From assembly GCF_001677475.2 (NCBI RefSeq), contig NZ_CP015229.1: DNA of 64,000 bases; one strand, 5' to 3'. This document shows, in pieces, positions 3,778 to 36,141 of this stretch. The notes beneath the pieces are model-generated. The model had not been told where the DNA came from. It did no database searches and saw only the letters and a program-made list of their open reading frames with translations. This DNA comes from Escherichia coli. Its GTDB lineage: Bacteria > Pseudomonadota > Gammaproteobacteria > Enterobacterales > Enterobacteriaceae. Position numbers and translations under genes: made by a program. Within the stretch, counting starts at the first letter, position 1, and the number at the start of each line of letters is the position of its first letter.

Positions 3778-6618
3778 TCATTCTTCCACCAGCCACTTCT
3801 GCCAGCTTGCCCGCACCAGTTCACGCTCTGCGGTGAAGCAATCCTCCGACACATGGCCCGGCAATTCCTGTAATGCCAGATGATGAAGTTCATCGCGCAG
3901 CGTCGTGTAAGCACGGGTCAGCGCCATCGCTTCCTGCTCTTCCATAATGTCGTTTTGCGCCAGTAGTTCCAGAATGCGCACGTTGTCTGACCAGCGCGTT
4001 AACTTCGGTTTTTCATGAGCGTAGCGCAACACCAGATATTGAGTAATAAATTCGATATCGGTAATTCCGCCTTCATCGGCTTTGATATCAAAGCGATCGC
4101 GATGTTTATTGCCGAGATGGGCACGCATTTTCTCGCGCATTTCCCGCACTTCTGTTTGCAGGGTTTTGCCTTCGCGCGGCAGCATCATAATTTCCCGACG
4201 CACCGCGTCAAAGTGCGCAGTGAGCTGTGGATCGCCATACACTACCCGCGCACGCACCAGCGCCTGATGCTCCCACGTCCAGGCCTCGTTTTTCTGATAA
4301 TCAGCAAACGCTTCAGCGGATGTCACGAGCATTCCCGCCGCCCCGGACGGACGCAGCCGCGCATCCACTTCGTACAAAATGCCGGAAGAAGTACGCGTAC
4401 TGAACAGATGCATAATGCGTTGCGCCAGACGCAGATAAAATTGCCGCCCGTCGATTTCCCGCTCGCCGTCGGTCATCACATCCATCGGGCAATCATGGAG
4501 GAAGATCAGGTCAAGATCGGAACTGTAACCTAACTCCCAACCGCCCAGCTTGCCGTAGCCGACCACCGCAAAACCACGGCCTTCGCGTTCGTTCAGGTGA
4601 TTTGGCTTACCGTAGCGGGCAACCATTTGAACCCACGCCTGCTGAACGACGGCGTCAATCATGGCTTCCGCCAGCCAGGTTAAGTGATCGCTCACTTTCA
4701 TCACCGGTAGCGTACCGGCGATATCCGCTGCCGCAATACGTAACAGTTGCGCCTGTTTGAACTGACGCAGCGCCTCAAGCTGTTGTTCTTCGTCATCTTC
4801 CGGCACGCGCAGTAAATACTGGCGCAGTTCATCACGGTAGGCATCCGTCGCCGTCGGCTGGTAGAGAGTGTTTGGATCGAGCAGTTCATCCAGCAATAAC
4901 GGATAACGCGCCAGTTGGCTGGCAATCATCGGCGATGCGGCACACAGAGAAATCAAATGTTTAAGCGCCGCGGGGAATTCACTGAGCAATTCTAAATAGG
5001 TGGTGCGGGTAACAATCCCCACCAGCAAGGCGGTAATGCGCGACAGCGTAACGGCAGCGTCTTCACGCGCACAGACATCACTTAGCAAATGTGGCATCAG
5101 ATGGTCGAGCACCTGACGTCCTCGCGGCCCGATGGTGCGCTTATCCAGCTCTTTGCGGAAATCGGCAATCAGCGTTAGCACCTGTTTGCGATCATCCTCG
5201 CTAAGATGCGCCAGCACTGGCGTGGTGTCATCTTCCTGCAACGCATCCTGCCACAGCTCACGCCACTGTTCCGACAGCGACTCTTCCTGAGTTTCGCTTT
5301 CGTCGTCGCCAATCAATTCGTTAAACACCCGGCGCACATTGGTCATATGTCCGGTCAGCTTCCCTGTTAGTTGCGACCAGTCAGCGAAATCCATTGCCCA
5401 CGCCAGCCGCGCACGATTAAGCTCATCAGAAGGAAGCGTCTGGGTTTGTTCGTCGTTAATGCTTTGCAGCAGGTTTTCCAGACGCCGCAGGAACAGATAC
5501 GCCACTCGCAATTGTTCAGCATCGTTTTCAGAAAGCAGATGCAGCGCGGCAATAGCGCTGAGCGTTGGTAGTAAAGAGCGCGATTGCAGCGACGGTTCAC
5601 GCCCGCCGCGAATAAGCTGGAATACCTGGACGATAAATTCAATTTCTCGAATGCCACCCGCGCCAAGTTTGATGTTGTCGGTCAAACCACGTCGACGCAC
5701 TTCGCGGGCAATCATCCCTTTCATGTTGCGCAGCGACTGGATGACGCTGAAATCGATGTAACGACGGAAAACAAACGGGCGCAGCATCGCACGCAACTCG
5801 TTAGCATAGACGCCTTCGCTATCGCCCATAATCCGCGCCTTGACCATCGCGTAACGCTCCCAGTCGCGCCCCTGCTCCTGGTAATAATCTTCCAGTGCCG
5901 CAAAGCTCAGCACCAGCGGGCCACTTTCGCCAAACGGACGCAGTCGCATATCCACGCGATAGACGAAACCATCCTGCGTTGGTTGATCCAGCACTTTAAT
6001 CAGCCGCTGCCCCATGCGGGTAAAAAACTGCGCGTTATCCATTTCCCGGCGTCCGCCCTGGGTACAACCATGTTCCGGCCAGGCAAAAATCAGATCGATA
6101 TCAGAGGAGAAATTCAGTTCCCCGCCGCCCAGCTTACCCATGCCTAAAATCAGCAGCGGTTGCGCTTCGCCCTGCGCATTGCACGGCGTTCCCCATTCGC
6201 GGCAGCAGGCGTCATACAGCCAGTCACGCGCCGCAACAATCAGCGTCTCCGCCAGATGACTGAGCTGCTGCAAAATGCTCTCTTCAGTAACCAGTGCCAG
6301 CGTTTGCGCCCAGGCGATGCGCACCATAATGCGCCGCCGGAATAGCCGCAGCTCGCGCATTACCCCGGCTTCGTCACTCACATTACTGAGCGCCTCCTGC
6401 AACCAGGCAGCGTAATGCTGCCATTCGTCGGCCTGCGGCGGTTGGCTTTCCAGTTCCGTCAGCCACTCTGGATGCGCAATCACGCTGTCCTGCACAAAAT
6501 CACTGAAAGTAAGTACTGACTTCGCCTGTGCGCTAAGTGATTCCTCGGCTAAAGGCTCTGGCAGCCGCTCAACAACGGTCTGCCAGTACTGCTGTAACGG
6601 TGAAGAGAGCGGCTTCAT
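3778..6618 (-). CDS. glnE: Glutamine synthetase adenylyltransferase/adenylyl-removing enzyme
   Basis: ORF track gives 1014 aa from an upstream alternative start; the recognised GlnE N-terminus [13 protein letters not shown] begins at the ATG whose complement is at 6616-6618, giving 946 aa with two nucleotidyltransferase domains. Confidence 0.9.
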
Positions 6619-8867: not shown

Positions 8868-10106
8868 GTGAAGATTTATCTGGTCGGTGGTGCTGTTCGG
8901 GATGCATTGTTAGGGCTACCGGTCAAAGACAGAGATTGGGTGGTGGTCGGCAGTACGCCACAGGAGATGCTCGACGCGGGCTACCAGCAGGTAGGCCGCG
9001 ATTTTCCTGTTTTTCTGCATCCGCAAACGCATGAAGAGTATGCGCTGGCACGTACTGAACGGAAATCCGGTTCCGGTTACACCGGTTTTACCTGCTATGC
9101 CGCACCGGATGTCACGCTGGAAGATGATCTTAAGCGTCGCGATCTGACCATTAATGCGCTGGCCCAGGACGATAACGGCGAGATTATCGACCCGTACAAC
9201 GGTCTGGGCGATCTGCAAAATCGTCTGTTGCGCCATGTTTCCCCCGCTTTTGGCGAAGATCCGTTACGCGTATTGCGCGTGGCGCGTTTTGCTGCGCGTT
9301 ATGCCCACCTCGGTTTTCGTATTGCCGATGAAACTCTGGCACTGATGCGCGAGATGACCCATGCGGGTGAACTGGAACACCTGACGCCTGAACGGGTATG
9401 GAAAGAGACGGAAAGCGCCCTCACCACCCGCAATCCCCAAGTCTTCTTCCAGGTACTGCGCGATTGTGGTGCACTGCGCGTTTTATTCCCGGAAATTGAC
9501 GCCCTGTTTGGCGTTCCGGCCCCTGCCAAGTGGCATCCGGAAATCGACACGGGTATTCATACCTTAATGACGCTCTCAATGGCGGCGATGCTGAGTCCGC
9601 AGGTCGATGTCCGTTTCGCAACGCTATGCCACGATCTCGGTAAAGGACTGACGCCGCCAGAACTTTGGCCGCGTCATCATGGTCATGGCCCGGCGGGTGT
9701 TAAGTTAGTGGAACAACTCTGCCAGCGTCTGCGTGTGCCAAATGAAATTCGCGATTTAGCCAGACTGGTGGCTGAGTTTCACGATCTCATCCACACCTTC
9801 CCAATGCTGAACCCAAAAACCATCGTCAAATTATTTGATTCCATCGATGCCTGGCGTAAACCGCAGCGTGTCGAGCAACTGGCGCTGACCAGCGAGGCTG
9901 ACGTGCGCGGCAGAACCGGTTTTGAATCGGCGGACTACCCGCAAGGCCGCTGGTTGCGCGAAGCCTGGGAAGTGGCACAGTCAGTGCCGACAAAAGCCGT
10001 CGTTGAAGCGGGATTTAAAGGTGTGGAGATTCGCGAAGAGCTGACCCGACGGAGGATTGCGGCGGTAGCCAGCTGGAAGGAACAACGTTGCCCAAAGCCT
10101 GATTAA
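8868..10106 (+). CDS. cca: tRNA nucleotidyltransferase (CCA-adding enzyme) with HD domain
   Basis: 412-aa ORF from a GTG start, [12 protein letters not shown]...; HD motif (HDLGK) in C-terminal half. Confidence 0.9.
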
Positions 10107-22475: not shown

Positions 22476-22551
22476 GGCCCCTTAGCTCAGTGGTTAGAGC
22501 AGGCGACTCATAATCGCTTGGTCGCTGGTTCAAGTCCAGCAGGGGCCACCA
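22476..22551 (+). tRNA. ileX: tRNA-Ile (anticodon CAU, lysidine-modified)
   Basis: 76-nt sequence ggccccttagctcagtggttagagcaggcgactCATaatcgc...gggccacca folds as a canonical cloverleaf with CAT anticodon and encoded CCA; its 3' 46 nt are repeated at 36093-36141. Confidence 0.92.
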
Positions 22552-22554
22552 GAT
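22506..22554 (+). repeat. attL core (3' part of ileX plus 3 nt)
   Basis: Exact 49-bp identity with 36093-36141, read directly from the sequence. Confidence 0.85.
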
Positions 22555-22593
22555 TTCAATGAATTACAGATGTATCCAAACTATCTTGCTTTA

Positions 22594-22627
22594 CCAGGAT
22601 ACTTATAGGATACCTCTGAGAAGTATT
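22594..22627 (+). promoter_or_regulatory. Arm-type repeat near attL (AGGATAC motifs; candidate integrase/accessory-factor binding site)
   Basis: ccaggatacttataggatacctctgagaagtatt closely matches 35964-35997 near attR (29 of 34 positions). Confidence 0.45.
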
Positions 22628-22765
22628 AACAAGTAAGAATTGGCTCATGCCTACAGAACAGTTGGGTCGTAGCAGCCGTTCACCTGCGAACAAGAAAGTG
22701 CTACGGGTCTGAACTTTTGCCCCCAACTCTCCAAGAGACCGGCAAAAACCCTGACGGAGGTATCA

Positions 22766-22909
22766 ATGGATACTTTAAGAAAGGGCTCAGACCTGCTGTC
22801 TGCACGTGTGATTGCCGTTACAGGTTTAATCGCAGCACTTGGCAATTTAGGTCTATGCCCAATAGCCGTAGTGCTAGTATGTATAGCTTTAGTTATCATG
22901 CTGAAGTAA
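22766..22909 (+). CDS. 47-aa small hydrophobic membrane peptide (MDTLRKGSDLLSARVIAVTGLIAALGNLGLCPIAVVLVCIALVIMLK)
   Basis: Strong SD (ggagg) 6 nt upstream of ATG; followed by hairpin gcccagctttcgctgggc; a single predicted TM helix. Too short to be in the ORF track. Confidence 0.5.
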   Translation: MDTLRKGSDLLSARVIAVTGLIAALGNLGLCPIAVVLVCIALVIMLK

Positions 22910-23356
22910 TGACAGCGTAACAAGCTCGGCCCAGCTTTCGCTGGGCCTCCCATTTCTACCTCCCAAAATCTATTAGAAACAATAAGCCACTAAAGAAAGA
23001 GCTTTTGCTGGCTACAATACTCACATACAAACAATTTTTATTTTTCGCGGGCGTAAAAAAACGATGGGGCTGGCAGTCCGGAAGACGTCAGGGTACAGAG
23101 ATTTGTACCCGCCTCTCCCTGTGCATGAGCACAATAAGTAACCGAAGGCGGAATTCCGCCCTCGGTACTCACATATGAGAAACGATATTTCTTCCACCGA
23201 TACCCTTTATTTGGGTATCGCGAGTAAGCCCCAAAATCTGGGTGTTACTCTTACTACCCAAACTACGGGTAGTTTCCGTAGTTTCATGGTCGAGTTGCAG
23301 ATCTGCAACTCACCCACCAGCCAACGCAATTTTGCGTTATCGGGAATATCAGCAAG

Positions 23357-23973: not shown

Positions 23974-24085
23974 TCTGATCCTGACTCGTAAGTATGAGAC
24001 GACAATAACTCAGTCCGCCTGGCGCCGATTATTCTGGCCGGTTTTGTAACCTGAGTGTCATTTACATGATCCAACAGGAAATGGC

Positions 24086-25465
24086 GTGACGCTCAATACT
24101 TCTCAGGTCAGTTACTATATGACTCAGCGTAAGAAAGGTATAACTCAGCATATCTCGGCCATGAAGGCTGGTATCTCAGTCCGTTCTGGTCGTCGGATCG
24201 AAAAAGGAGAGTGGGCAAAAAACAGTGTTCGGCACTGGCGCACACGCAAAGATCCTCTGGAAGCTGTGTGGGACAGCATGCTTGTTCCTCTGTTGAAAGA
24301 GAGGCCGGCTCTGACACCAACAACTCTACTGGAGATGCTACAGGATAAATATCCCGGCCAGTACCCCAACAGCCTTCGAAGAACAATGCAACGGCGGGTT
24401 CGCGAATGGAAACTACAGTATGGTACAGAGCAGGAGGTCATGTTCCGCCAGCAACATCAGCCCGGCCTGCGAGGCCTGTCGGACTTTACTGAACTGAAAG
24501 GTGTAGTTGTCACCATCGCCGGTAAGTTGTTGGCGCATAAGTTGTATCACTTCCGTCTGGAATGGAGCCACTGGAGCTGGATGCGGGTTGTTCTGGGTGG
24601 TGAGAGCTTCTCTGCTCTGGCTGAAGGCCTGCAGGAAGCCCTCGGACAACTGGGCGGAGTGCCGGTAGAACATAAAACGGACAGCCTGAGGGCAGCATGG
24701 AAACAACAGGGCGAAGATGGACGCCGCGAGCTGACTGAGCGTTATGCTACTCTCTGTCAGCACTACGGAATGCAGGGCGTACACAATAATGCCGGTCGGG
24801 GCCACGAAAATGGCTCGGTTGAAAGTGCCCACGGACATCTGAAAAGGCGTATCTGTCAGGCGCTGATACTGCGGGGCAGTAACGACTTCAGCACCATAGA
24901 AGAATATCAGGCCTTCATCACTCAGCAGGTTATGCGGCACAACCGTAACAATCAGGATCTGGTCAAGGAAGAACGTCTTCATCTGAAACCGCTGCCGCTT
25001 CGTCGCAGTGCTGACTATGATGAGCTGACTGTGAGGGTTAGTCGCAGCAGTACCATCAATGTGAAGCACGTCGTCTACAGCGTACCTTCCCGGCTTGTAG
25101 GTCAACTGTTACGGGTCAGGTTATGGGACGATCGTCTGAGCTGTTACGTTGGCAGCAGCGAGGTCATGAGCTGCCCTCGCGTCAGACCAGAAAAAGGGAA
25201 GACGCGGGCCCGTCGTATCGACTTCCGACATGTGATCGACAGTCTGGCAAAAAAGCCCGGTGCGTTCTGCCATGCAACGCTGAGAAATGACATCCTGCCG
25301 GACGATGAATGGCGGAGGCTGTGGCGTCGCTTATGTAATCATCTGGAGCCCGATATGGCAGGAAGGCTGATGGTACATGCCGGGAAACGTGGATCTGCAC
25401 CGGCTGATGCGCTTCCTGGGTATAAAAGAAAAGGCGTTGCCGGTAGTCAATGTGATACAGCATAA
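24086..25465 (+). CDS. istA: IS21-family transposase IstA
   Basis: 459-aa ORF (GTG start) with N-terminal HTH and DDE-type catalytic region; sits immediately upstream of an IstB-like gene. Confidence 0.8.
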   Translation: MTLNTSQVSYYMTQRKKGITQHISAMKAGISVRSGRRIEKGEWAKNSVRHWRTRKDPLEAVWDSMLVPLLKERPALTPTTLLEMLQDKYPGQYPNSLRRTMQRRVREWKLQYGTEQEVMFRQQHQPGLRGLSDFTELKGVVVTIAGKLLAHKLYHFRLEWSHWSWMRVVLGGESFSALAEGLQEALGQLGGVPVEHKTDSLRAAWKQQGEDGRRELTERYATLCQHYGMQGVHNNAGRGHENGSVESAHGHLKRRICQALILRGSNDFSTIEEYQAFITQQVMRHNRNNQDLVKEERLHLKPLPLRRSADYDELTVRVSRSSTINVKHVVYSVPSRLVGQLLRVRLWDDRLSCYVGSSEVMSCPRVRPEKGKTRARRIDFRHVIDSLAKKPGAFCHATLRNDILPDDEWRRLWRRLCNHLEPDMAGRLMVHAGKRGSAPADALPGYKRKGVAGSQCDTA

Positions 25466-25510
25466 CCTGAGCAGTTATGAGCAACTACTGCGTGGCAAGG
25501 GAGGTTCGCA

Positions 25511-26266
25511 GTGAGCAATATCCATCACCTTGAACATAGCCTGCGTAAACTACGCCTGACACGAGTTGGAGCTGAATGGCACGCTCTGGAAAAACGAGCG
25601 CTGGCAGAAGGCTGGACACCATCGCGCTATCTTCTGACGCTATGCAATGAAGAACTCCTGTGGCGCGAGAGTGAAAAACTGCGTCGTTATAAAAAGGAGG
25701 CCCGGTTGCCAGTTGCCAAAACGCTGAGCGAATACGACTTCAGTCAGGTGCCGGAACTGAATGGAGCTCAGTTCCGGCAACTCTGTGAAACGACAGACTG
25801 GGTTGATGCAGGAGAAAACGTTCTGCTGTTCGGAGCCAGCGGGTTGGGGAAAAGCCATCTGGCGGCAGCGATCGTGGATGGCGTAGTAGGTCAGGGCTAC
25901 CGGGCCCGGTTCTACAGCGCAGGAGAGCTGTTGCAGGAACTACGTAAAGCCAGAGCTCAGTTGAAACTGAATGAGCTGCTACTGAAACTGGATCGCTACC
26001 GGGTGATAGTGGTGGATGATCTTGGCTATGTCAAACGCGATAGTGCCGAAACGGGTGTGCTGTTCGAGTTAATAGCGCATCGCTATGAACGTGGGAGCCT
26101 GGTGATAACCAGTAACCATCCGTTCAGCATGTGGGGCAGCATCTTCGTGGATGAGACTATGGCGGTGGCTGCGGCAGACAGGCTGATCCATCACGGATAT
26201 ATGTTCGAACTGAAAGGGGAAAGCTACAGGAAAAAGACAGCGAAGGCAGTAACAAGCGCGACTTGA
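25511..26266 (+). CDS. istB: IS21-family helper ATPase IstB
   Basis: 251-aa ORF with Walker A (GASGLGKSHLA) and Walker B (VIVVDDLGY) motifs; RBS gggagg upstream of GTG start. Confidence 0.85.
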   Translation: MSNIHHLEHSLRKLRLTRVGAEWHALEKRALAEGWTPSRYLLTLCNEELLWRESEKLRRYKKEARLPVAKTLSEYDFSQVPELNGAQFRQLCETTDWVDAGENVLLFGASGLGKSHLAAAIVDGVVGQGYRARFYSAGELLQELRKARAQLKLNELLLKLDRYRVIVVDDLGYVKRDSAETGVLFELIAHRYERGSLVITSNHPFSMWGSIFVDETMAVAAADRLIHHGYMFELKGESYRKKTAKAVTSAT

Positions 26267-26325
26267 TGTCGCCCTGAAGGGTGCGGCCAGTATAGTTGGC
26301 GCGAGTCGGCAAAACTAGTTGACGT

Positions 26326-26526
26326 CTAATATCGTAAGAGTTCATCATCATCAATCTCGCCTTTGTCGTTTGTAAGCTGGCTAATTGCATTGTTAACCCT
26401 ATTGTCTATCACGCTGGCAACATCATAAAACGCCTCACGGCCTTTACGTTCAACGGGAGTCACTCCCCACTTGTCGAATGCTGTAGCACTTACCCGGCAG
26501 CTTTGCGCCATGGTTTTTTTGTTCAT
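26326..26526 (-). pseudogene. Small terminase subunit (lambda Nu1-like), N-terminal fragment truncated at the IS boundary
   Basis: MNKKTMAQSCRVSATAFDKWGVTPVERKGREAFYDVASVIDN... parallels lambda Nu1 N-terminus (MEVNKKQLADIFGASIRTIQNWQEQGMPV...); ORF ends exactly at the IS junction. Confidence 0.7.
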
Positions 26527-26639: not shown

Positions 26640-26745
26640 CCCCTGAAAAAGCTCATAAATAGCGAAAAACCGCGAGGTCGCCGCCCCGTAACGGGTCCAT
26701 ATGCCGGAAAGGACCCGTAAAAAAAGCCGGATTTCTCCGGCCTTG
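26640..26745 (-). other. Lambda-type cos site (cosN with flanking terminase-binding region)
   Basis: Minus strand reads ACGGGTCCTTTCCGG...CGTTACG-GGGCGGCGACCT-CGCGGTTTTTCGCTATTTATGA, nearly identical to the phage lambda cohesive-end region as I recall it (GGGCGGCGACCTCGCGGGTTTTCGCTATTTATGAAAA); lies ~150 nt upstream of the Nu1-like start. Confidence 0.75.
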
Positions 26746-26747
26746 TC

Positions 26748-27161
26748 TCAGATGGTTTTCAGTATGCGATCGATGTCGCCATCATCGCCCGGGTTTCTGC
26801 CAGCGTATGCCATACCAGCTGATACGGCTTTCGGGCTGTGCATGTCCATAAAGTTTTCAAAGGCTGCGGTAAGCTCTGGTGCAACCTTCTGGCGTTCCTG
26901 CTCTATGGTCATGCTAAGGATGCTTTTAGCCGTACCAACATCGATACAAGGCACGTTTGCCATTGCACGTAACAGCGGCTGATAGTCGCCAGATTCATCA
27001 AGCGCCATAATCGCATCAGAGCGCGGCTTGTCCTTCTCTTCCAGGCTGTTAAGTTGATATACGGCCTCGTAGGTTGATAAACCTCTGTCAGCCATTGCCC
27101 GCGCTTCGGCCTTAAATTTACTCGCCAGCGGTAGCGTCATGATGCTTTCATTCGTTGCCAT
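26748..27161 (-). CDS. Hypothetical protein (137 aa) between decoration-like gene and cos
   Basis: ORF with no motif I recognise; co-oriented with capsid genes. Confidence 0.55.
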   Translation of the reverse strand: MATNESIMTLPLASKFKAEARAMADRGLSTYEAVYQLNSLEEKDKPRSDAIMALDESGDYQPLLRAMANVPCIDVGTAKSILSMTIEQERQKVAPELTAAFENFMDMHSPKAVSAGMAYAGRNPGDDGDIDRILKTI

Positions 27162-27173
27162 CGTTCCCTCTGC

Positions 27174-27509
27174 TTATCGGGCCAGTGGCTGAACGGATAC
27201 GCCAGAACCCGCAAAGGCGGCGCATTTTTTCGCATCGGTGTCGACGCTCTCAGGCCAGTTAACGGCGGCGATATTAAATATCCCCGTCTTATAGCACTGT
27301 GCTGATTTCTGCGTCGACGTGTCAACGGGGTACGAGGTCAGATAAACAGCCTTGCCAGATTCCTGACCATCCCACGGCTTAAACTCGCCATTTTCCGCCA
27401 GCATCAGCGGGGTAAATTCCTGAATAACTCCAGCATCAGCGGCAAAATGTACCAGCGTCGTGGATACCTGCTGACTGCCTGCAAATAACTCAATGTATGG
27501 AGTGTTCAT
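27174..27509 (-). CDS. Head decoration protein (lambda gpD-like)
   Basis: 111-aa ORF, size and position next to an E-like capsid gene match lambda D (110 aa); assignment by context and size, weak sequence recall. Confidence 0.6.
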   Translation of the reverse strand: MNTPYIELFAGSQQVSTTLVHFAADAGVIQEFTPLMLAENGEFKPWDGQESGKAVYLTSYPVDTSTQKSAQCYKTGIFNIAAVNWPESVDTDAKKCAAFAGSGVSVQPLAR

Positions 27510-27520
27510 AGAATCCCCCG

Positions 27521-28576
27521 TTAAGCAATTTTGACGGTAACAAATTTGCGAATATCTGCCGGTACCGGCTGCGGTGCGCTGTGCGTCTGCACGTACTCAA
27601 TCGCCGGATCGCCATCCTCAATCCAGTTTTTCGGGTAGTACATGTTTTGCGTTGCGCCAGTTCTTACCGCTTCCGGATCCATAATCGCACCATAGGCCAC
27701 CAGCCCTTTATTGTTAGTGTTGCCCAGGACAAGCAAATCAGGCTCAAGGAAATATTTTTCGGTGCCATCGCTGTCGGTGTATTTGCCGGAATAGACGATA
27801 AGGGCCAGATCACCCAGATAGCCTTTAAAGCTCACCACTTCGCCCAGGTTTTTACAGGCCAGCTCTGCGGCGGATTCTGAACCACGGGAAAGATCGTACA
27901 GTTCACGGAATTTTTTAAAGCTGCGTAACGTGCGCCATACCTCAGCGCCCATAATCATGACGTTGGCGGGGCAACCAGCCTGATCGGTGTATAGTTCGAT
28001 GTCATAGATTGGATCGTGTGTTTCCTTATCTGCCTCAGACCACTTTTTGCCCGATCCCTGCGTAATGATGTTTTTAGTCGGGATTTTCCAGTCGATTTCG
28101 TATCTATTTATTCCTTCGCCCTCAATGATGTTTTTTCCGGTCGTGACCGCATTCACCGCCAGCCATTCTATGCGAGCTTTAATAGCGTTTACCTGGCGGC
28201 GCATGTTGCCAGTAATCAGGCGCATACGGCGATAAGTTGGATCGTTAAGCTGTGCCGGATCTTCTCCAGCCATGCGCATGATGGTTTTTGATGGATCGAT
28301 TTCGTGTTTTGGTTTCATATAGCCAGGGCGGATAGTGCTTGTTTCGTACCCTTTATCGCGCTGAACCTGACTCCCCACCATAGGCGAACAAAAAGCCGAC
28401 ATGGTGACTTCTTCAATATCCAGGGTATCTAACATGATGTCCTGCGTGTTGAAGGTTGCCACGTTCGGGAAAAACAGCGACGTAAACAGCGGACTGAATT
28501 TAAATTCCGAAATATCCCCACGATTCAGGTACGCGAAAAGCTGGTTAGTGTTAAGTGCCGTTGCTTTGCCTGTCAT
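27521..28576 (-). CDS. Major capsid protein (lambda gpE-like)
   Basis: 351-aa ORF aligning along its length with lambda E from memory: FKFSPLFTSLFF / FKFDPLFLRLFF, PGYMKPKHEIDP / PGYVKPKHEVNP, YSGKY...LVLGNTNN...YPKNW / YSGQY...MVLGNTQA...YPKNW. Confidence 0.8.
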   Translation of the reverse strand: MTGKATALNTNQLFAYLNRGDISEFKFSPLFTSLFFPNVATFNTQDIMLDTLDIEEVTMSAFCSPMVGSQVQRDKGYETSTIRPGYMKPKHEIDPSKTIMRMAGEDPAQLNDPTYRRMRLITGNMRRQVNAIKARIEWLAVNAVTTGKNIIEGEGINRYEIDWKIPTKNIITQGSGKKWSEADKETHDPIYDIELYTDQAGCPANVMIMGAEVWRTLRSFKKFRELYDLSRGSESAAELACKNLGEVVSFKGYLGDLALIVYSGKYTDSDGTEKYFLEPDLLVLGNTNNKGLVAYGAIMDPEAVRTGATQNMYYPKNWIEDGDPAIEYVQTHSAPQPVPADIRKFVTVKIA

Positions 28577-28951: not shown

Positions 28952-29028
28952 GCCCGATAAGACCCTCTGACCTTATCGGGCTTTTTTTGGGGCATAAAAA
29001 AGCCGGACTTCTCCGGCTTCTGTTACTC
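28952..29028. terminator. Pair of intrinsic terminator hairpins between the SSB gene and the capsid operon
   Basis: gcccgataag...cttatcgggc followed by T-run; and gccggacttctccggc flanked by A-run / T-run (functional on minus strand). Confidence 0.55.
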
Positions 29029-29033
29029 GTTGC

Positions 29034-29456
29034 TTAAAACGGTATGTTATCCCCGTACGGATCATCGTTACCCGCCTGTTGTTTTGCCCTGTTCAGTGCG
29101 TCAGTAGCCTGCCCTTGCTGGCCTTTTTTGCCGCCCGGTCGCGCCGTTCTCGCACTGATTACGCTGTCTGCGATAACCTGCCAGCCCTGCCGCGTTTCGC
29201 CGTTCTGGCCTGTCCACTGGCTTACCTGCATGTTACCCGCCACGCTCACCAGTTCGCCTTTGTGGTGTTTTGCCAGTGCGTCGGCCTGTCTGCCAAACGC
29301 CAGGACGGATAACCACATCGTCGCCGTTCCGTCATCTGCCTGGCTGCACGGAAGGGGGACCGCCATACTAGCCATCGTCATTTGTGTACCCTTGCTGGTG
29401 GTCTTTAACTGCGGGTCAGCCACCAGCCGCCCGTAAGCCGCTATCTGTGCTGTCAT
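29034..29456 (-). CDS. Single-stranded DNA-binding protein (island-encoded SSB)
   Basis: 140-aa ORF; Gly/Gln-rich linker and acidic C-terminal tip ...DDPYGDNIPF resembling the SSB C-terminal DDDIPF motif. Confidence 0.75.
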   Translation of the reverse strand: MTAQIAAYGRLVADPQLKTTSKGTQMTMASMAVPLPCSQADDGTATMWLSVLAFGRQADALAKHHKGELVSVAGNMQVSQWTGQNGETRQGWQVIADSVISARTARPGGKKGQQGQATDALNRAKQQAGNDDPYGDNIPF

Positions 29457-29698
29457 GCTGTCTGCTCTCCGGTTTTAACGTTGATGGTTGTCACCTGTTC
29501 CGCTTCGGCAATCTCCCGTTCTGTCAGCGTGGCAAAGTTTGCAGCTGCCGTTGTCATGAATGCGCTAATCAGTTCGGGATGTGCTTTCGCATATCCTTCC
29601 CCGGCGTTGCGGTCGATGATTTTTATCGACACCCTTAACCAGTGTTCCGTCAAATCAAGGGCGTGCGATTGTGATTTTTTTGTGTGCTTCGCTGTCAT
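29453..29698 (-). CDS. Hypothetical protein (81 aa), coupled to ssb by ATGA overlap
   Basis: ORF directly downstream of the iteron array; no recognised domain. Confidence 0.5.
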   Translation of the reverse strand: MTAKHTKKSQSHALDLTEHWLRVSIKIIDRNAGEGYAKAHPELISAFMTTAAANFATLTEREIAEAEQVTTINVKTGEQTA

Positions 29699-29742
29699 AG
29701 GCTTTATCTCACAGCAGTAAATTAAAATTTTTGCGTTTTAAC

Positions 29743-29971
29743 CCTTCACCTGTTCACCTTTTGATATTTTCCATTTAAATTCATACTGTTAAGGGGTGAA
29801 CAGTTTCACAAAAACTATTCACCAACTGTTCACCACTGTTCACCCTTGAAGCTCAATAAACAACCAAAAAGGTGAACAGTGAATAGTTTGGTGAATAGTT
29901 CATAAATAACTGTTCACCCTATAATATACTGATATAAAAGATATTTATGACAGGGTGAACAGTGGTGAACA
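29743..29971. repeat. Iteron array (P4 ori/crr-type TGTTCACC octamers)
   Basis: Perfect TGTTCACC at 29751, 29827, 29837, 29911 and its complement GGTGAACA at 29795, 29871, 29954, 29964, plus degenerate copies (tattcacc, ggtgaata), within ~230 bp immediately 3' of the primase gene. Confidence 0.8.
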
Positions 29972-29985
29972 GTTATTCCATAAGT

Positions 29986-31803
29986 TTAATTTTTGCTATC
30001 GTCATTAGTGACTGATACACATGATGGCATCCAGTCTTCTGATTCCTCCGTCAGTGTCACGTTTGAACGTAAACCGTGCTTCGTTTTCCGTTTTATATAC
30101 TCCCTGCCATATTCCGCCATTGCCCCAGGCATATCTTTACCGAAGCGCGTCAGTGTTACAGGTTTACCAAACCCATGAGCCCTCATATAAGCCAGATAGG
30201 CATGATAGAGATACCTGCGCGGGCTGAATGGCACAATTTCAGCATTACCCACTAACAGGCCATCACACATTACCGACGCCATGAGATAGCCGCAGAAGTC
30301 CACCAGCGAATCCCCCTCTCGCTTTATCGCCAGTGCTTCTTCAGATTTCTGCTGCTCATATAACAGGCGTCTGGCTTCGTCCTGGTCAGCAAACCTTGTA
30401 AGCAGATGGCGAATCACTACCGCCAGCTCACCTTCTATTTTTTCCGCCAGCATCGGATCGCGTTCGTTCTCCGGTACAACTTCCGAAAAATTGAATATCA
30501 CCCGACGACGTGAGATCCCCCCGCTGCGGTCACTGAATGACATGGCGTTATTGTTAACCGCCAGCACTACTGCCGGAATACGCGTTGAGTAGGGGGCTTT
30601 GTGTTTCGGGTCAATTGCCACCTTGTCACCGCCTGTAATGGCCTTAATTCCTGCCCCATCACCAGCGTAGCGGGTCATATCCGGCATGATAATCAGCGAA
30701 AAGCCAACCACTAACGCGCGTTCCCTTGCATCTTCCAGCGCCTTCATGCTTGCCGATACTGTGTTGGCCTTACCCGCCAGCATGGTGCAAATCTCCGCCA
30801 TCACGCTTTTACCACTTCCCCCTGGACCTGTTACCTCAATGAATAACTGCCAGTCGTACCGGTTCGCCAGCACCATGAATAATGCAGCCAGTACGCGATC
30901 CGCCTTGCGGTCATTCTCAGCCACCGAACGGCGTAACCACTTCCAGAAATTCGGCGCATGTGTTGCCAGCGTTTCCCCCTCTGCTGGTGGGCTGAAAGGT
31001 AATTCACTGGCAATTAACAACCAGTCGTTTTTGTTATGCTCCCGAAAATTACCTGTTCTGGTATCAAATACCCCGTTACTGAATCCAATCAGGTTACGGG
31101 CTGTATTCCCCATTACAGGCAAACTTAACTTCATGGTATCGACCGCCGATTTAATGGCGTTCTGCGAATAGCTGATCTCCGCATCAATGAAAATCTGCGC
31201 CATAGCACGCTGTAACTCTTTATCCTGAACCGGCTCCCATACAACGCCGTTGTAATGGTGAACAGTGTCAGAGTCAGCATGAATCGCCAGTTCACCGCCA
31301 TAATGTGCCAGGAGAACTTCGCCGCGTTGACTTGCTCCCATCTGGTTAAGCGCCAGTGATGAAGCGTTATCGTCTTTTACCCGCTCTTTTTTCTTTACAG
31401 GCAGTTCAACTACCTTTTTCTTTTCCGCCAGCTCTGCCCGTTCACGTTCCAGATATTCGCGCCAGTTCTCCCGTTTCTGGCTGTGCATTCCTTCAGGATA
31501 ATAATCAGCATCCCTGACACCTGCCGCTGCCAGTTTCTGCCCGATGGTATTAACAAGCCCCGGACGCAATAACCCCGCCTGGTAGAGACGCACACGATAG
31601 CGTCCGTCCGGTACGATTTGCAGGTTGTCCAGTTCGGCAAGTTGTTGCTCTCCAAGCCAGACAGGAGGCACGTTATCGCCAGCCAGTCGCCCGTCCTGTT
31701 CCTGCCACTGCTTCGCATGTGCCCACGCATCACTACCCGCAAAAATGATGACTTCCGTCATTTTGTCACGTGGCTGGTGTTTTAAATTTGGCGCTTTTTT
31801 CAT
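29986..31803 (-). CDS. Satellite replication protein (P4 alpha-like primase-helicase, D5-type NTPase)
   Basis: 605-aa ORF (likely start MKKAP with ATGA overlap to upstream gene); Walker A GPGGSGKS; adjacent to TGTTCACC iterons. Confidence 0.75.
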   Translation of the reverse strand: MKKAPNLKHQPRDKMTEVIIFAGSDAWAHAKQWQEQDGRLAGDNVPPVWLGEQQLAELDNLQIVPDGRYRVRLYQAGLLRPGLVNTIGQKLAAAGVRDADYYPEGMHSQKRENWREYLERERAELAEKKKVVELPVKKKERVKDDNASSLALNQMGASQRGEVLLAHYGGELAIHADSDTVHHYNGVVWEPVQDKELQRAMAQIFIDAEISYSQNAIKSAVDTMKLSLPVMGNTARNLIGFSNGVFDTRTGNFREHNKNDWLLIASELPFSPPAEGETLATHAPNFWKWLRRSVAENDRKADRVLAALFMVLANRYDWQLFIEVTGPGGSGKSVMAEICTMLAGKANTVSASMKALEDARERALVVGFSLIIMPDMTRYAGDGAGIKAITGGDKVAIDPKHKAPYSTRIPAVVLAVNNNAMSFSDRSGGISRRRVIFNFSEVVPENERDPMLAEKIEGELAVVIRHLLTRFADQDEARRLLYEQQKSEEALAIKREGDSLVDFCGYLMASVMCDGLLVGNAEIVPFSPRRYLYHAYLAYMRAHGFGKPVTLTRFGKDMPGAMAEYGREYIKRKTKHGLRSNVTLTEESEDWMPSCVSVTNDDSKN

Positions 31804-32099
31804 TTCTGCTCTCTCCACGCGGCAATCATGTTTTTCAGTTCCTGTAGTTTTTTATCAACATCCATACATGACACATGGTTATTTCTGGAAGGCGGGATTT
31901 CCCGCCGGAATCTGCAAATAAAGATCTCCACGTTCAGCGAGCTATGAAATGAATAGCCATCACGAATAAAATACACACGGTCAAACATTATCGATTTTAC
32001 TGTTACTCTGTTGCCGTTCTTATCCCGATAAATAGCGCCGGGGATAATTTTGGGATGTGCATAACCGCTGGCAGTCAAGCCAGATAAATACGTTCTCAT
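31800..32099 (-). CDS. Hypothetical protein (99 aa)
   Basis: ORF translationally coupled to the primase gene; no recognised domain. Confidence 0.5.
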   Translation of the reverse strand: MRTYLSGLTASGYAHPKIIPGAIYRDKNGNRVTVKSIMFDRVYFIRDGYSFHSSLNVEIFICRFRREIPPSRNNHVSCMDVDKKLQELKNMIAAWREQK

Positions 32100-33429: not shown

Positions 33430-33648
33430 TTACACCGTCTGCGTTCTGCGAGTGGATGCAAGATAAGCATCGAGATCAGTGCGCATATACAGCACTTTGC
33501 GCCCCAGCTTATGGAAAGGGATTTTTACCTTGCCAGTACAGGCCCAGTTCGCCAGCGTTTGATTGTTAACGCCAAGGTAGGCAGCAGCTTCAGCACGTGT
33601 AAGGCGGTCAGTTGATAAATCAGATTTCTTTAAATTCATATCTATCAC
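33430..33648 (-). CDS. alpA: AlpA/excisionase-family HTH regulator
   Basis: 72-aa ORF with LTRAEAAAYLGVNNQTLANWACTGKVKIPFHKLGRKVLY (MerR-like HTH_17 pattern). Confidence 0.75.
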   Translation of the reverse strand: MIDMNLKKSDLSTDRLTRAEAAAYLGVNNQTLANWACTGKVKIPFHKLGRKVLYMRTDLDAYLASTRRTQTV

Positions 33649-33786: not shown

Positions 33787-34507
33787 GGGGGTGAACAAGT
33801 TCAAACGAAGAATATTTATCAGGTCTTGGTGGTTGTGCTCCTGATTCTTTAATCCATTTATCCAGAGTGTTTTTACTTACTTTCCCATGATAGTAAACAG
33901 AAAGCTCGTTCAATAAACCTGTTTTACTGGCTTTAGGGTACTTTTCCCATGTTAGTTTAATTACGTGCATAACTTCATTGTAATAATGATTTCTTGGTTT
34001 GCGCGCTTTTTCTTTCTGTGATAAGGATAAAGCATCTTTTATTTTTTTATCTTTTTCATGGTTCGATATAATTTCTTCAAAAAAGTCATTAAGCAATAAC
34101 TCAACACCAACCCTAGTAAGTTTGTCTGCGTGATTACGCATTCCGACATGGTACAATGCAACTGCTGAATTTAAAGTATCGACAACCTGACAAGATAGTT
34201 TACTATCAAATATTAAAAAACCACATGAATCCATTCTTATAGCTAATTCAATAGGATATTGCTCGATTTCTCTTAATTCTAAACCATAACACAAAAGAAA
34301 TTCTCTTGTTGGATACTTTGATTTATAAAAATAATCTCTTATATCATCAATCAAGCGTTTTATAGCCTCTATGGTGGAGTTTTTCGGGGATAAAGATACA
34401 GGAACGTTTAAAACTGAAGAGTCTCGCCCACCAGTAATTAAATCATTCATAACCGAATAAATAATATATTGTTTGACCGATATATTGTTATCACCCATAT
34501 ATGTCAT
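33782..34507 (-). CDS. AT-rich orphan protein (241 aa) in the integrase-proximal cargo position
   Basis: Long ORF with visibly lower GC than the rest of the island; overlaps the int stop; no motif I can recognise. Confidence 0.6.
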   Translation of the reverse strand: MTYMGDNNISVKQYIIYSVMNDLITGGRDSSVLNVPVSLSPKNSTIEAIKRLIDDIRDYFYKSKYPTREFLLCYGLELREIEQYPIELAIRMDSCGFLIFDSKLSCQVVDTLNSAVALYHVGMRNHADKLTRVGVELLLNDFFEEIISNHEKDKKIKDALSLSQKEKARKPRNHYYNEVMHVIKLTWEKYPKASKTGLLNELSVYYHGKVSKNTLDKWIKESGAQPPRPDKYSSFELVHPQ

Positions 34508-35912
34508 TCTTTTCTTGTACTATAGCAAATAGTAAACGACGTTTTTCATCATCACTCATGCCCTCCAGTGCGGAAAGTAATTGCGCATCGATAGATTTTT
34601 TACTCTCCACCAGCCCGGCATGTTCCAGAATTGCCCGTTCTATCCGTGATGCTGGCTCCAGCAGTTCATCAGCACCGAAATGTAAATACCCCTGCGTTAC
34701 GTCGGCACTTCGCATAGTGCGGTGATTCATCAGGCGCTTGAGGATGTAATTACCCACGCCCACCAGCTCAGCAACCGTTCCGAACGTCCGGCGTGCGTCG
34801 TGCCACTTAAACGGGACAGGGAAGAGCATTTCATCGTTCGCCTCAGGAATGGTAGCCGCGCTTATCCGGTCTATGATGTGCCGTGTCTCCTGAATCACTC
34901 CCTTCACGCCAGGAAACACCAGCACATCATCAGCAGCTTTGTTTTTTAGCCTGCGAAGAAACATTTTCCGCAACGTATCAGTGATCGGCAGTTCAAGCGG
35001 ATCCCCGTTTTTCGTGGTGTCTATCCAGAAAAAGCGACCGCCCATATTCACGCGATCCCACGTAAGGCCAAAAACTTCTGATTTCCTCAGTCCGGTAAAC
35101 AGTGCCATTTCCACGGCATCACATACCGTAACAGCTATATCATCCCTTTCCTGTTCGCCCTGGTCGCGCACAGCAGCTACAGCAGCAAACCAGCGGGGAA
35201 AATCATGCAGGCGGATACGTTCCGTTTTTCTTACCGTTCCGTGCCACTGGCGCTTGGTGCTCAGTACCAGAGTCGGCGGATCCGGTAAAAGAGTATTACC
35301 CGCATCATCACGGTAATGATCATGCGCAAACCGACACACAGCACGTAGCGCACGCGCCCATAAATCGGCCTGTGCCTTGCTTCCTGTACCAACCCCAGCC
35401 CGTAACGTGGTTTTATCAGCACCGAACCATACAGCCCCATCAGTGATGGCCTTATGCCGTTGTTCCACCCGTTCGCGGGAAATACTGGCGAGGGTATGGG
35501 CCATCCAGTCACCGGAATAATTCTGTAATATGCTGCGGTACTGTTTTTCTGTGGAGGGTTTCAGGCGGTGGCCACGATTTTTTACGTAGGCGTCAATCGC
35601 CTCACTCAGCGTTATCATGGCCTTGTTGTTAGTGCGCTTTGCTATGTTCGGATTTATCCCCGTTGTGGCGACTTCGCCAAGGAGTTCCATAGCTTTAGCC
35701 CTGGCATTATCCACGCTCAGATCAGGAAAACGCCCCAGCGTTGCACGAATAAATTTTCCGTTACGCTTACGGGAAATGCAGAAACTTTTCACACCAGACG
35801 AACCTACACGGACACGCAGCCCGTTAACCTCCGTATCACCATATTCGACCTGTCCATGTTCCGGCGTTGGCAGTTCTGCAATTTTTACTTTAGAGAATCT
35901 GAATAATTTCAC
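34491..35912 (-). CDS. int: Tyrosine site-specific integrase
   Basis: 473-aa ORF from a GTG start; catalytic signature region (LRKSE..., WHDARRTFGT, ...QGYLHF) with an N-terminal arm-binding-like domain. Confidence 0.85.
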   Translation of the reverse strand: MKLFRFSKVKIAELPTPEHGQVEYGDTEVNGLRVRVGSSGVKSFCISRKRNGKFIRATLGRFPDLSVDNARAKAMELLGEVATTGINPNIAKRTNNKAMITLSEAIDAYVKNRGHRLKPSTEKQYRSILQNYSGDWMAHTLASISRERVEQRHKAITDGAVWFGADKTTLRAGVGTGSKAQADLWARALRAVCRFAHDHYRDDAGNTLLPDPPTLVLSTKRQWHGTVRKTERIRLHDFPRWFAAVAAVRDQGEQERDDIAVTVCDAVEMALFTGLRKSEVFGLTWDRVNMGGRFFWIDTTKNGDPLELPITDTLRKMFLRRLKNKAADDVLVFPGVKGVIQETRHIIDRISAATIPEANDEMLFPVPFKWHDARRTFGTVAELVGVGNYILKRLMNHRTMRSADVTQGYLHFGADELLEPASRIERAILEHAGLVESKKSIDAQLLSALEGMSDDEKRRLLFAIVQEKNDIYG

Positions 35913-36092: not shown

Positions 36093-36141
36093 ACTCATAA
36101 TCGCTTGGTCGCTGGTTCAAGTCCAGCAGGGGCCACCAGAT
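36093..36141 (+). repeat. attR core (displaced partial copy of tRNA-Ile 3' end)
   Basis: 49-bp exact copy of 22506-22554; upstream sequence is not tRNA-like, so this is not a functional tRNA. Confidence 0.85.

Follow-up and report, generated by a model that had tools for sequence, protein, structure and literature searches.

We found a dense array of TGTTCACC octamers immediately 3′ of a replication-initiator gene (rep) in a 64-kb window of Escherichia coli DNA (a stretch of 64,000 nucleotides from contig NZ_CP015229.1, RefSeq assembly GCF_001677475.2), which we predict to serve as replication origin for a phage-inducible chromosomal island (PICI), a member of the EcCICFT073 family inserted at the tRNA gene ileX. 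We put the probability of this assignment, which draws on sequence features and on analogy with an experimentally characterized relative, at about 0.85. A preliminary description of the window had likewise named an island replication origin as the most likely function of the array, a proposal favored by the alpha-type winged helix predicted to be encoded beside it and by the functional origin that occupies the same slot in EcCICFT073. The array and its parts are as follows:

29743..29971, unstranded: iteron array, predicted PICI replication origin, with three dyad-symmetric modules, collinear with the validated EcCICFT073 origin
29911..29971, unstranded: Rep-proximal module, with tandem iterons at 29954 and 29964 (10 bp apart) and an opposed iteron at 29911
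29919-29953, unstranded: Rep-proximal AT-rich spacer, 35 bp, ~22% GC
29816..29897, unstranded: central module, with iterons at 29816 (degenerate), 29827 and 29837, spaced 11 and 10 bp and followed by a 26-bp spacer
29871, 29880 (degenerate) and 29890 (degenerate), unstranded: inverted half of the central module, facing the three iterons over the 26-bp spacer
29743..29802, unstranded: distal module, with CCTTCACC at 29743, TGTTCACC at 29751 and an opposed iteron at 29795
29759-29794, unstranded: distal AT-rich spacer, 36 bp, ~27% GC

An exact search recovers eight perfect copies of the octamer in 221 bp (29751-29971), four on each strand, with plus-strand starts at 29751, 29827, 29837 and 29911 and minus-strand starts at 29795, 29871, 29954 and 29964. 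Two one-mismatch units, TATTCACC at 29816 (plus) and 29890 (minus), and two two-mismatch units read from the sequence, at 29743 (CCTTCACC) and 29880 (reverse complement TATTCACT), bring the total to 12 units, eight perfect and four degenerate, within 29743-29971; the earlier count of at least eight perfect octamers in both orientations, plus degenerate copies, within 230 bp thus holds. The actual repeated unit is the 10-mer ACTGTTCACC. Across the whole window the octamer occurs 10 times against an expectation of 1.80 ± 1.18, a count reached by none of 100 shuffles, and the remaining two, at 31257 and 33790 beyond the array, are no more than chance would provide, which agrees with the earlier remark that comparable density is found nowhere else in the window. 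When perfect and one-mismatch copies are counted, the island holds one iteron cluster only.

Along the direction of the rep gene (minus strand), the units form three modules with the layout (2>, AT-rich, 1<)(3>, spacer, 3<)(1>, AT-rich, 2<), separated by gaps of 13 bp each and embraced by a dyad symmetry that spans the whole array (centre ~29857, arms of 52 nt). Neighboring tandem iterons lie 9-11 bp apart, which places the units on one face of the helix. The GC content is 22-45% over the array region and 22-33% in its spacers, compared with ~50% in the flanking genes, and is lowest (22-28%) in the two spacers of ~35 bp. The array occupies the 288-bp gap between rep and the next co-directional minus-strand gene (start 29698): as the preliminary description had placed it, it lies immediately 3′ of the primase-helicase gene, with the first iteron 14 bp past the rep stop codon, and it ends ~50 bp short of the next gene. 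The presence, the statistical significance and the architecture of the array are established. No DnaA boxes were detected in or near it, neither a sigma-70-like promoter nor an intrinsic terminator is predicted in 29300-30300, and an Rfam scan of the island returns the tRNA as the sole structured RNA, with none in the array. A full-text literature search for TGTTCACC gave unrelated primer matches only, and the supplements of PMC6092414 contain neither this octamer nor the word "iteron".

The rep gene itself carries a perfect TGTTCACC at 31257-31264 and a single-mismatch copy at 31289-31296, 32 bp apart. We considered this pair as a second binding site and rejected it, given that the out-of-array count is at chance level and that P4 alpha contains no such copies; the pair is probably meaningless.

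The product of the gene bordering the array combines a helicase and an origin-binding domain of the type found in the alpha protein of satellite P4 with an apparently exchanged N-terminus. The gene and its coding regions are:

29986..31818, minus strand: Pri-Rep gene, annotated as 'DNA primase family protein', with D5_N, SF3 helicase and C-terminal winged helix
30025..30315, minus strand: region coding for the predicted C-terminal origin-binding winged helix (residues 502-598), assigned from 1KA8, Pox_D5 and covariation with the iterons
30457..31320, minus strand: region coding for D5_N and the SF3 helicase (residues 167-296 and 330-454)
31414..31803, minus strand: region coding for the N-terminal domain of ~135 aa, which has no family assignment and appears to stand in for the DnaG-type primase domain of P4 alpha

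Rep is 610 aa long when read from a GTG (31818) and 605 aa from the ATG at 31803 (PGAP annotation), and it displays the Walker A motif GPGGSGKS. Pfam profiles identify D5_N (167-296), the DUF5906/SF3 helicase core (330-454) and Pox_D5 (PF03288; 501-596). The best match to a solved structure is the origin-binding domain of P4 alpha (1KA8, deposited as 'putative P4-specific DNA primase'; E=2.5e-24 over the 97 residues 502-598), followed by the SaPI5 primase-helicase (7OLA; E=2.7e-10) in the helicase core. In BLASTP, residues 150-600 of Rep align with 320-771 of P4 alpha at 51% identity, and the C-terminal 100-residue region taken separately is 48% identical; the homology of the Rep C-terminus to the alpha origin-binding domain is firmly established. 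The ~145 N-terminal residues find no BLASTP counterpart in P4 alpha, in which a DnaG-type primase is followed by an SF3 helicase and then by a winged helix (PMC2777425). Because the similarity is confined to residues 150-600, Rep appears to have kept the helicase and origin-binding domain of the alpha type and to have had its N-terminus swapped. The suspicion that the domain arrangement of the 605-aa protein may differ from that of alpha was therefore well founded, the difference probably being a replaced N-terminal DnaG-type region.

This N-terminal domain has no recognizable DnaG-type primase signature: the positions of the TOPRIM E and DxD motifs read A-G-S-D and Y-Q-A-G, as judged by eye rather than from a computed alignment. 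Homologues of residues 6-150 come nearly all from E. coli and Shigella, and none of them has a Pfam match in the domain. In some proteins it is joined to RepA/AAA_25 helicases rather than to D5/SF3 helicases, which identifies it as a module common to different PICI initiators. Only the helicase part of the protein supports the annotation 'DNA primase family protein'.

The closest functional precedent comes from the Gram-negative PICIs, whose origin directly follows the initiator gene on its 3′ side and is built of iteron sets on either side of an AT-rich region (PMC6092414, Fillol-Salom et al. 2018, ISME J). There, a temperature-sensitive plasmid went on replicating at 44 °C when it carried the rep gene and putative ori of EcCICFT073, but not when ori or rep was mutated (PMC6092414). 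The array in the window agrees with this pattern in position, directly 3′ of pri-rep, and in composition, with three opposed iteron modules round AT-rich spacers. Rep is 49% identical to the EcCICFT073 Pri-Rep over its full length (596 aligned residues), the N-terminal domain included. The two islands share int, alpA, DUF4222, pri-rep, ori, a small ORF, ssb and the lambda-like capsid and decoration genes, all in one direction, and EcCICFT073 has a 289-bp gap after Pri-Rep with collinear opposed iteron sets round AT-rich spacers; the homology and collinearity with this proven PICI origin are matters of observation. They differ in that the EcCICFT073 gap uses the octamer TGTCTACC and has no TGTTCACC at all, in contrast to the island in the window, and in that the C-terminal domains of the two Rep proteins are only 34% identical. 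Furthermore, EcCICFT073 is located beside phoQ instead of at ileX, and it lacks a TerS homologue and uses cos sites (PMC6092414), whereas the island in the window has a terS, albeit one broken by an IS21-family element.

The iteron itself is that of P4. The P4 record X51522 annotates TGTTCACC as 'ori type 1 repeat' in both ori and crr, in line with the preliminary description, which had named it as the type I iteron bound by P4 alpha at these two sites. The ori (9310-9413) contains six type 1 repeats; crr (4291-4590) has ten annotated copies, of which five are perfect. Beyond the identical octamer, P4 and the island share the tandem pair GGTGAACAGTGGTGAACAG, 10 bp apart, which occurs in P4 ori and at 29953-29971, and their initiators share the D5_N, SF3 helicase and winged-helix regions. 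The crr region lies immediately 3′ of alpha, the same position as that of the array relative to rep, and each of its 120-bp units features convergent iterons round a spacer of ~35 bp. Arrays resembling crr also follow the 800-aa P4-type homologues of Proteus and Rahnella. Against these likenesses, the island has a single array in place of a separate ori and crr, the array displays neither the 120-bp tandem duplication nor the type 2 repeats of P4, and the N-terminal DnaG-type primase region of alpha (~320 aa) seems to be replaced in Rep by the apparently unrelated domain of ~135 aa. We posit that P4 crr is the positional homologue and evolutionary counterpart of the single PICI origin. As for the element as a whole, we considered a P4-like satellite and rejected it: a tblastn search with all P4 proteins against the window matches alpha only, sid, delta, psu, epsilon and a P4-type int all being absent, and the 106-aa ORF of the island is unrelated to P4 ORF106. 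The earlier label of a satellite origin of the ori/crr type is hence retained for its alpha-type iterons and dropped in two other respects, the element being a PICI rather than a P4-like satellite and the origin a single array rather than ori plus crr.

The Gram-positive PICIs (Staphylococcus aureus pathogenicity islands, SaPIs) offer a more distant parallel. They too have an origin directly 3′ of rep with iteron sets flanking an AT-rich region, and their initiator is a self-loading SF3-type helicase, the core of which, in SaPI5 (7OLA), is matched by that of Rep. Their iterons have no sequence relationship to those described here, the origin-binding domain of Rep is instead of the P4 alpha type, and SaPIs are controlled by the Stl repressor, as opposed to an AlpA activator here (PMC6092414).

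A homologue scan with one genome per species yielded 62 loci, from which the rep ORF and the downstream 400 bp were extracted by script. Ten further PICI-type homologues of ~600 aa, from Klebsiella, Raoultella, Pluralibacter, Citrobacter, Kluyvera and Serratia, have an array no more than 330 bp from the stop codon. Most of them display the three-module layout, and the arrays align collinearly; one (L011) is weak, with two perfect copies. Within 3-kb flanks, the ~600-aa homologues of other genera have a single cluster beside the gene. In the six other elements that use TGTTCACC, identity to the window is 82% for the iteron columns and 57% for the spacer columns (Mann-Whitney P=1e-7); selection appears to act on the iterons. 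The allele of Kluyvera georgiana is 90% identical to Rep in the helicase core and 67% in the last 100 residues, its C-terminal domain differs by a 5-aa insertion in the predicted wing (KRKTKHG-----LRSN vs KRKQCTRGPDKGRTISN), and its iterons are all TGTCTACC. The Serratia alleles have a different insertion and use the octamer TGTCCGCC or TGTCCACC. The co-variation of iteron sequence with Rep allele is itself directly observed, and, as read from these alignments, the octamer switches at all sites in concert with the C-terminal domain of Rep.

Exchanges of the whole unit are also suggested. In the PICI of E. coli O157:H7 E32511 (locus L068, 7995-8196), a RepA-type helicase lies between the same DUF4222 and orf-ssb neighbors, and the slot 3′ of its rep contains unrelated AAAGTGAGG repeats in both orientations round an AT-rich stretch. 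That a RepA allele with repeats of its own occupies the same slot indicates rep-ori cassette exchange among E. coli PICIs. Conversely, the element vB_KppS-Ant of Klebsiella pneumoniae ATCC 13883 (LR881103) encodes a Rep 74.5% identical to that in the window, followed by eight TGTTCACC in the same layout, and differs in its host genus and in its much larger packaging and capsid module (terS, terL, portal and connectors). The array thus accompanies rep across elements and changes with rep, so that rep and array constitute a cassette, a behavior expected of a cognate origin and not of a packaging site or the promoter of a downstream gene. vB_KppS-Ant, at 16.5 kb, was published as a filamentous phage with single-stranded DNA (PMC8006926). 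It encodes an integrase, the P4-alpha-like Rep with its eight TGTTCACC, a major capsid protein, portal, connectors, TerS and TerL, and its rep-array region is essentially identical to a region of the K. pneumoniae ATCC 13883 host genome; its gene content looks like that of a capsid-forming PICI rather than an inovirus.

By analogy with these systems, we infer how binding, melting, helicase loading and priming might proceed. Induction of the island by a helper phage would lead to the production of Pri-Rep from the gene just upstream of the array, and the C-terminal winged helix of Rep would bind the ACTGTTCACC iterons. As the iteron clusters face each other over AT-rich spacers, Rep subunits would be brought together, and those on opposed iteron sets are predicted to assemble SF3 hexamers, melt the AT-rich spacer and load themselves to act as replicative helicase, in both directions if the dyad symmetry of the whole array is a guide. 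Given that the N-terminal domain of Rep has no demonstrable primase signature, priming by host DnaG or by a helper function may occur.

The array lies in an island that belongs to the EcCICFT073 family of Gram-negative PICIs and occupies the ileX site. This island measures 13.6 kb, including a 2.3-kb insertion sequence (IS) element, is bounded by a perfect 49-bp direct repeat and is flanked by the E. coli rpoD-mug-ileX ... nfeF(yqjH)-nfeR-aer region. It shows the features that define such a PICI: int, alpA, pri-rep, a single direction of transcription, a size within 10-15 kb, its own att sites and the lack of tail and lysis genes. On the minus strand, the order is integrase, a 241-aa protein, an AlpA-like HTH protein, an Icd-like protein, a 106-aa protein, DUF4222, Rep and the array, followed by the 81-aa protein, SSB, a small protein, the lambda-E-like capsid, the decoration protein, a 137-aa protein and the small terminase. 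The principal features outside rep and the array are:

36093..36141, plus strand: attR, the identical 49-bp repeat at the other end of the island
34491..35912, minus strand: tyrosine integrase
33430..33648, minus strand: AlpA-like excisionase/activator, a PICI hallmark, with its role in EcCICFT073 described in PMC6092414
29453-29698, minus strand: 81-aa protein (phrog_1231), downstream partner in the replication module, in the same order as in EcCICFT073
29034-29456, minus strand: SSB, downstream partner in the replication module, in the same order as in EcCICFT073
26748..28576, minus strand: capsid-related gene cluster, including the 137-aa ORF, with homologues c1499/c1500 of EcCICFT073 in PMC6092414
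27521-28576, minus strand: lambda-E-like major capsid protein
27174-27509, minus strand: head decoration protein
22506..22554, plus strand: attL, the 49-bp repeat, which is the 3′ half of tRNA ileX (CAT anticodon)

The integrase gene lies at the island end distant from the intact tRNA. We considered a capsid-forming PICI and rejected this class, for only the major capsid, the decoration protein and terS were found, without the full capsid set (portal, protease, connectors) or a large terminase. An IS21-family element at 23993-26331 (istA 24086-25465, istB 25511-26266) splits terS, and this copy of the island is probably defective for packaging. TUM1886 has the same island at ileX, 99.7-99.9% identical, with terS intact and without the IS21-family element. 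A stretch of ~480 bp beside attL (22552-23035) has no blastn match in the corresponding TUM1886 segment of ~220 bp; the attL-proximal end varies between otherwise near-identical islands. A near-identical 22-nt element occurs twice (26720-26741 and 28996-29017; GCCGGAGAAATCCGGCTTTTTT on the minus strand), as a hairpin followed by a T-run that resembles an intrinsic terminator, one copy directly after ssb and the other directly after the 137-aa ORF of the capsid cluster. The 291-bp array region itself has 656 occurrences among complete E. coli genomes, spread over 593 of the 5426 (~11%) and numbering as many as six in a single genome. A cell can therefore contain several islands of identical Rep/iteron specificity, which speaks against any strong incompatibility mediated by the iterons in the integrated state.

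Several points weigh against reading the array as the origin of this island. For this particular allele, we infer binding and origin firing by homology. P4 crr, in the homologous position, is not a start site and needs the second cluster ori, and by analogy the array may have a helper role. Without a clear primase signature, Rep alone might not provide every initiation function, and, with its terS broken by the IS element, this copy of the island may be no longer mobilizable even if it still replicates. The P4 comparison leads directly to one alternative, which we regard as unlikely: that the array is a cis-acting enhancer like crr, bound by Rep, with replication starting elsewhere in the island as it does in P4, where ori lies 4.5 kb from crr. 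The position of the array matches that of crr, and its convergent iterons round a ~35-bp spacer resemble one 120-bp crr unit. The island, however, offers no second cluster of perfect or one-mismatch iterons where such a start could lie, the ~600-aa homologues of other genera likewise have the gene-adjacent cluster alone, and rep plus the putative ori of EcCICFT073 were enough for plasmid replication (PMC6092414). The array could alternatively serve mainly as an operator through which Rep regulates the orf81-ssb-capsid genes, or as a copy-control (handcuffing) site that limits replication. Its place just upstream of the next co-directional gene is compatible with such a role, and iteron arrays of plasmids often have both origin and regulatory functions. 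We nevertheless deem this quite improbable, as no promoter or terminator of the types sought is predicted in or round the array, origins typically have AT-rich spacers and a dyad architecture such as those seen here, and the functional data on the homologous region concern origin activity (PMC6092414); moreover, regulation could coexist with origin function without supplanting it.

A pac or cos site for the small terminase of the island is very improbable. Satellites need a packaging signal and this island encodes terS, but the repeat is an alpha-type iteron that co-varies with the C-terminal domain of Rep, the array moves with rep into vB_KppS-Ant, an element with a wholly different packaging module, and EcCICFT073 has an equivalent array yet no TerS homologue (PMC6092414). 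Finally, the AT-rich context is all that would speak for a chance or low-complexity repeat devoid of function; the failure of every shuffle to reach the observed count, the conservation of the layout across genera with iteron columns above the spacers, and the presence of the array in the 593 complete E. coli genomes have already refuted this reading.

The class to which the array is assigned, a PICI origin located 3′ of pri-rep, has been published and functionally tested in a homologue, so that the array represents a further allele, and none of these results overturns the current understanding. Possibly new, though modest, are the iteron identical to that of P4, the joint switch of iteron and wing specificity on a fixed scaffold, and the view of crr as the counterpart of the PICI origin. 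The identical iteron and the homologous origin-binding domain also lead us to raise, as a tentative and rather doubtful idea, that PICIs and P4 satellites could cross-activate or compete for each other's origins in a shared cell. If so, P4 alpha might initiate replication at the PICI origin, or P4 ori and crr might respond to the PICI Rep, and the concerted switches to TGTCTACC, TGTCCGCC and TGTCCACC, with their insertions in the predicted wing, would represent escapes from such cross-talk. The predicted origin and its cognate initiator are now located for an island type found in about one in nine complete E. coli genomes, which aids the annotation of these islands, often labelled as defective prophages. 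In addition, initiator and iteron specificities come in matched pairs on one conserved scaffold, and the four octamer variants form a natural series that could be used to study how DNA specificity changes in winged-helix initiators.
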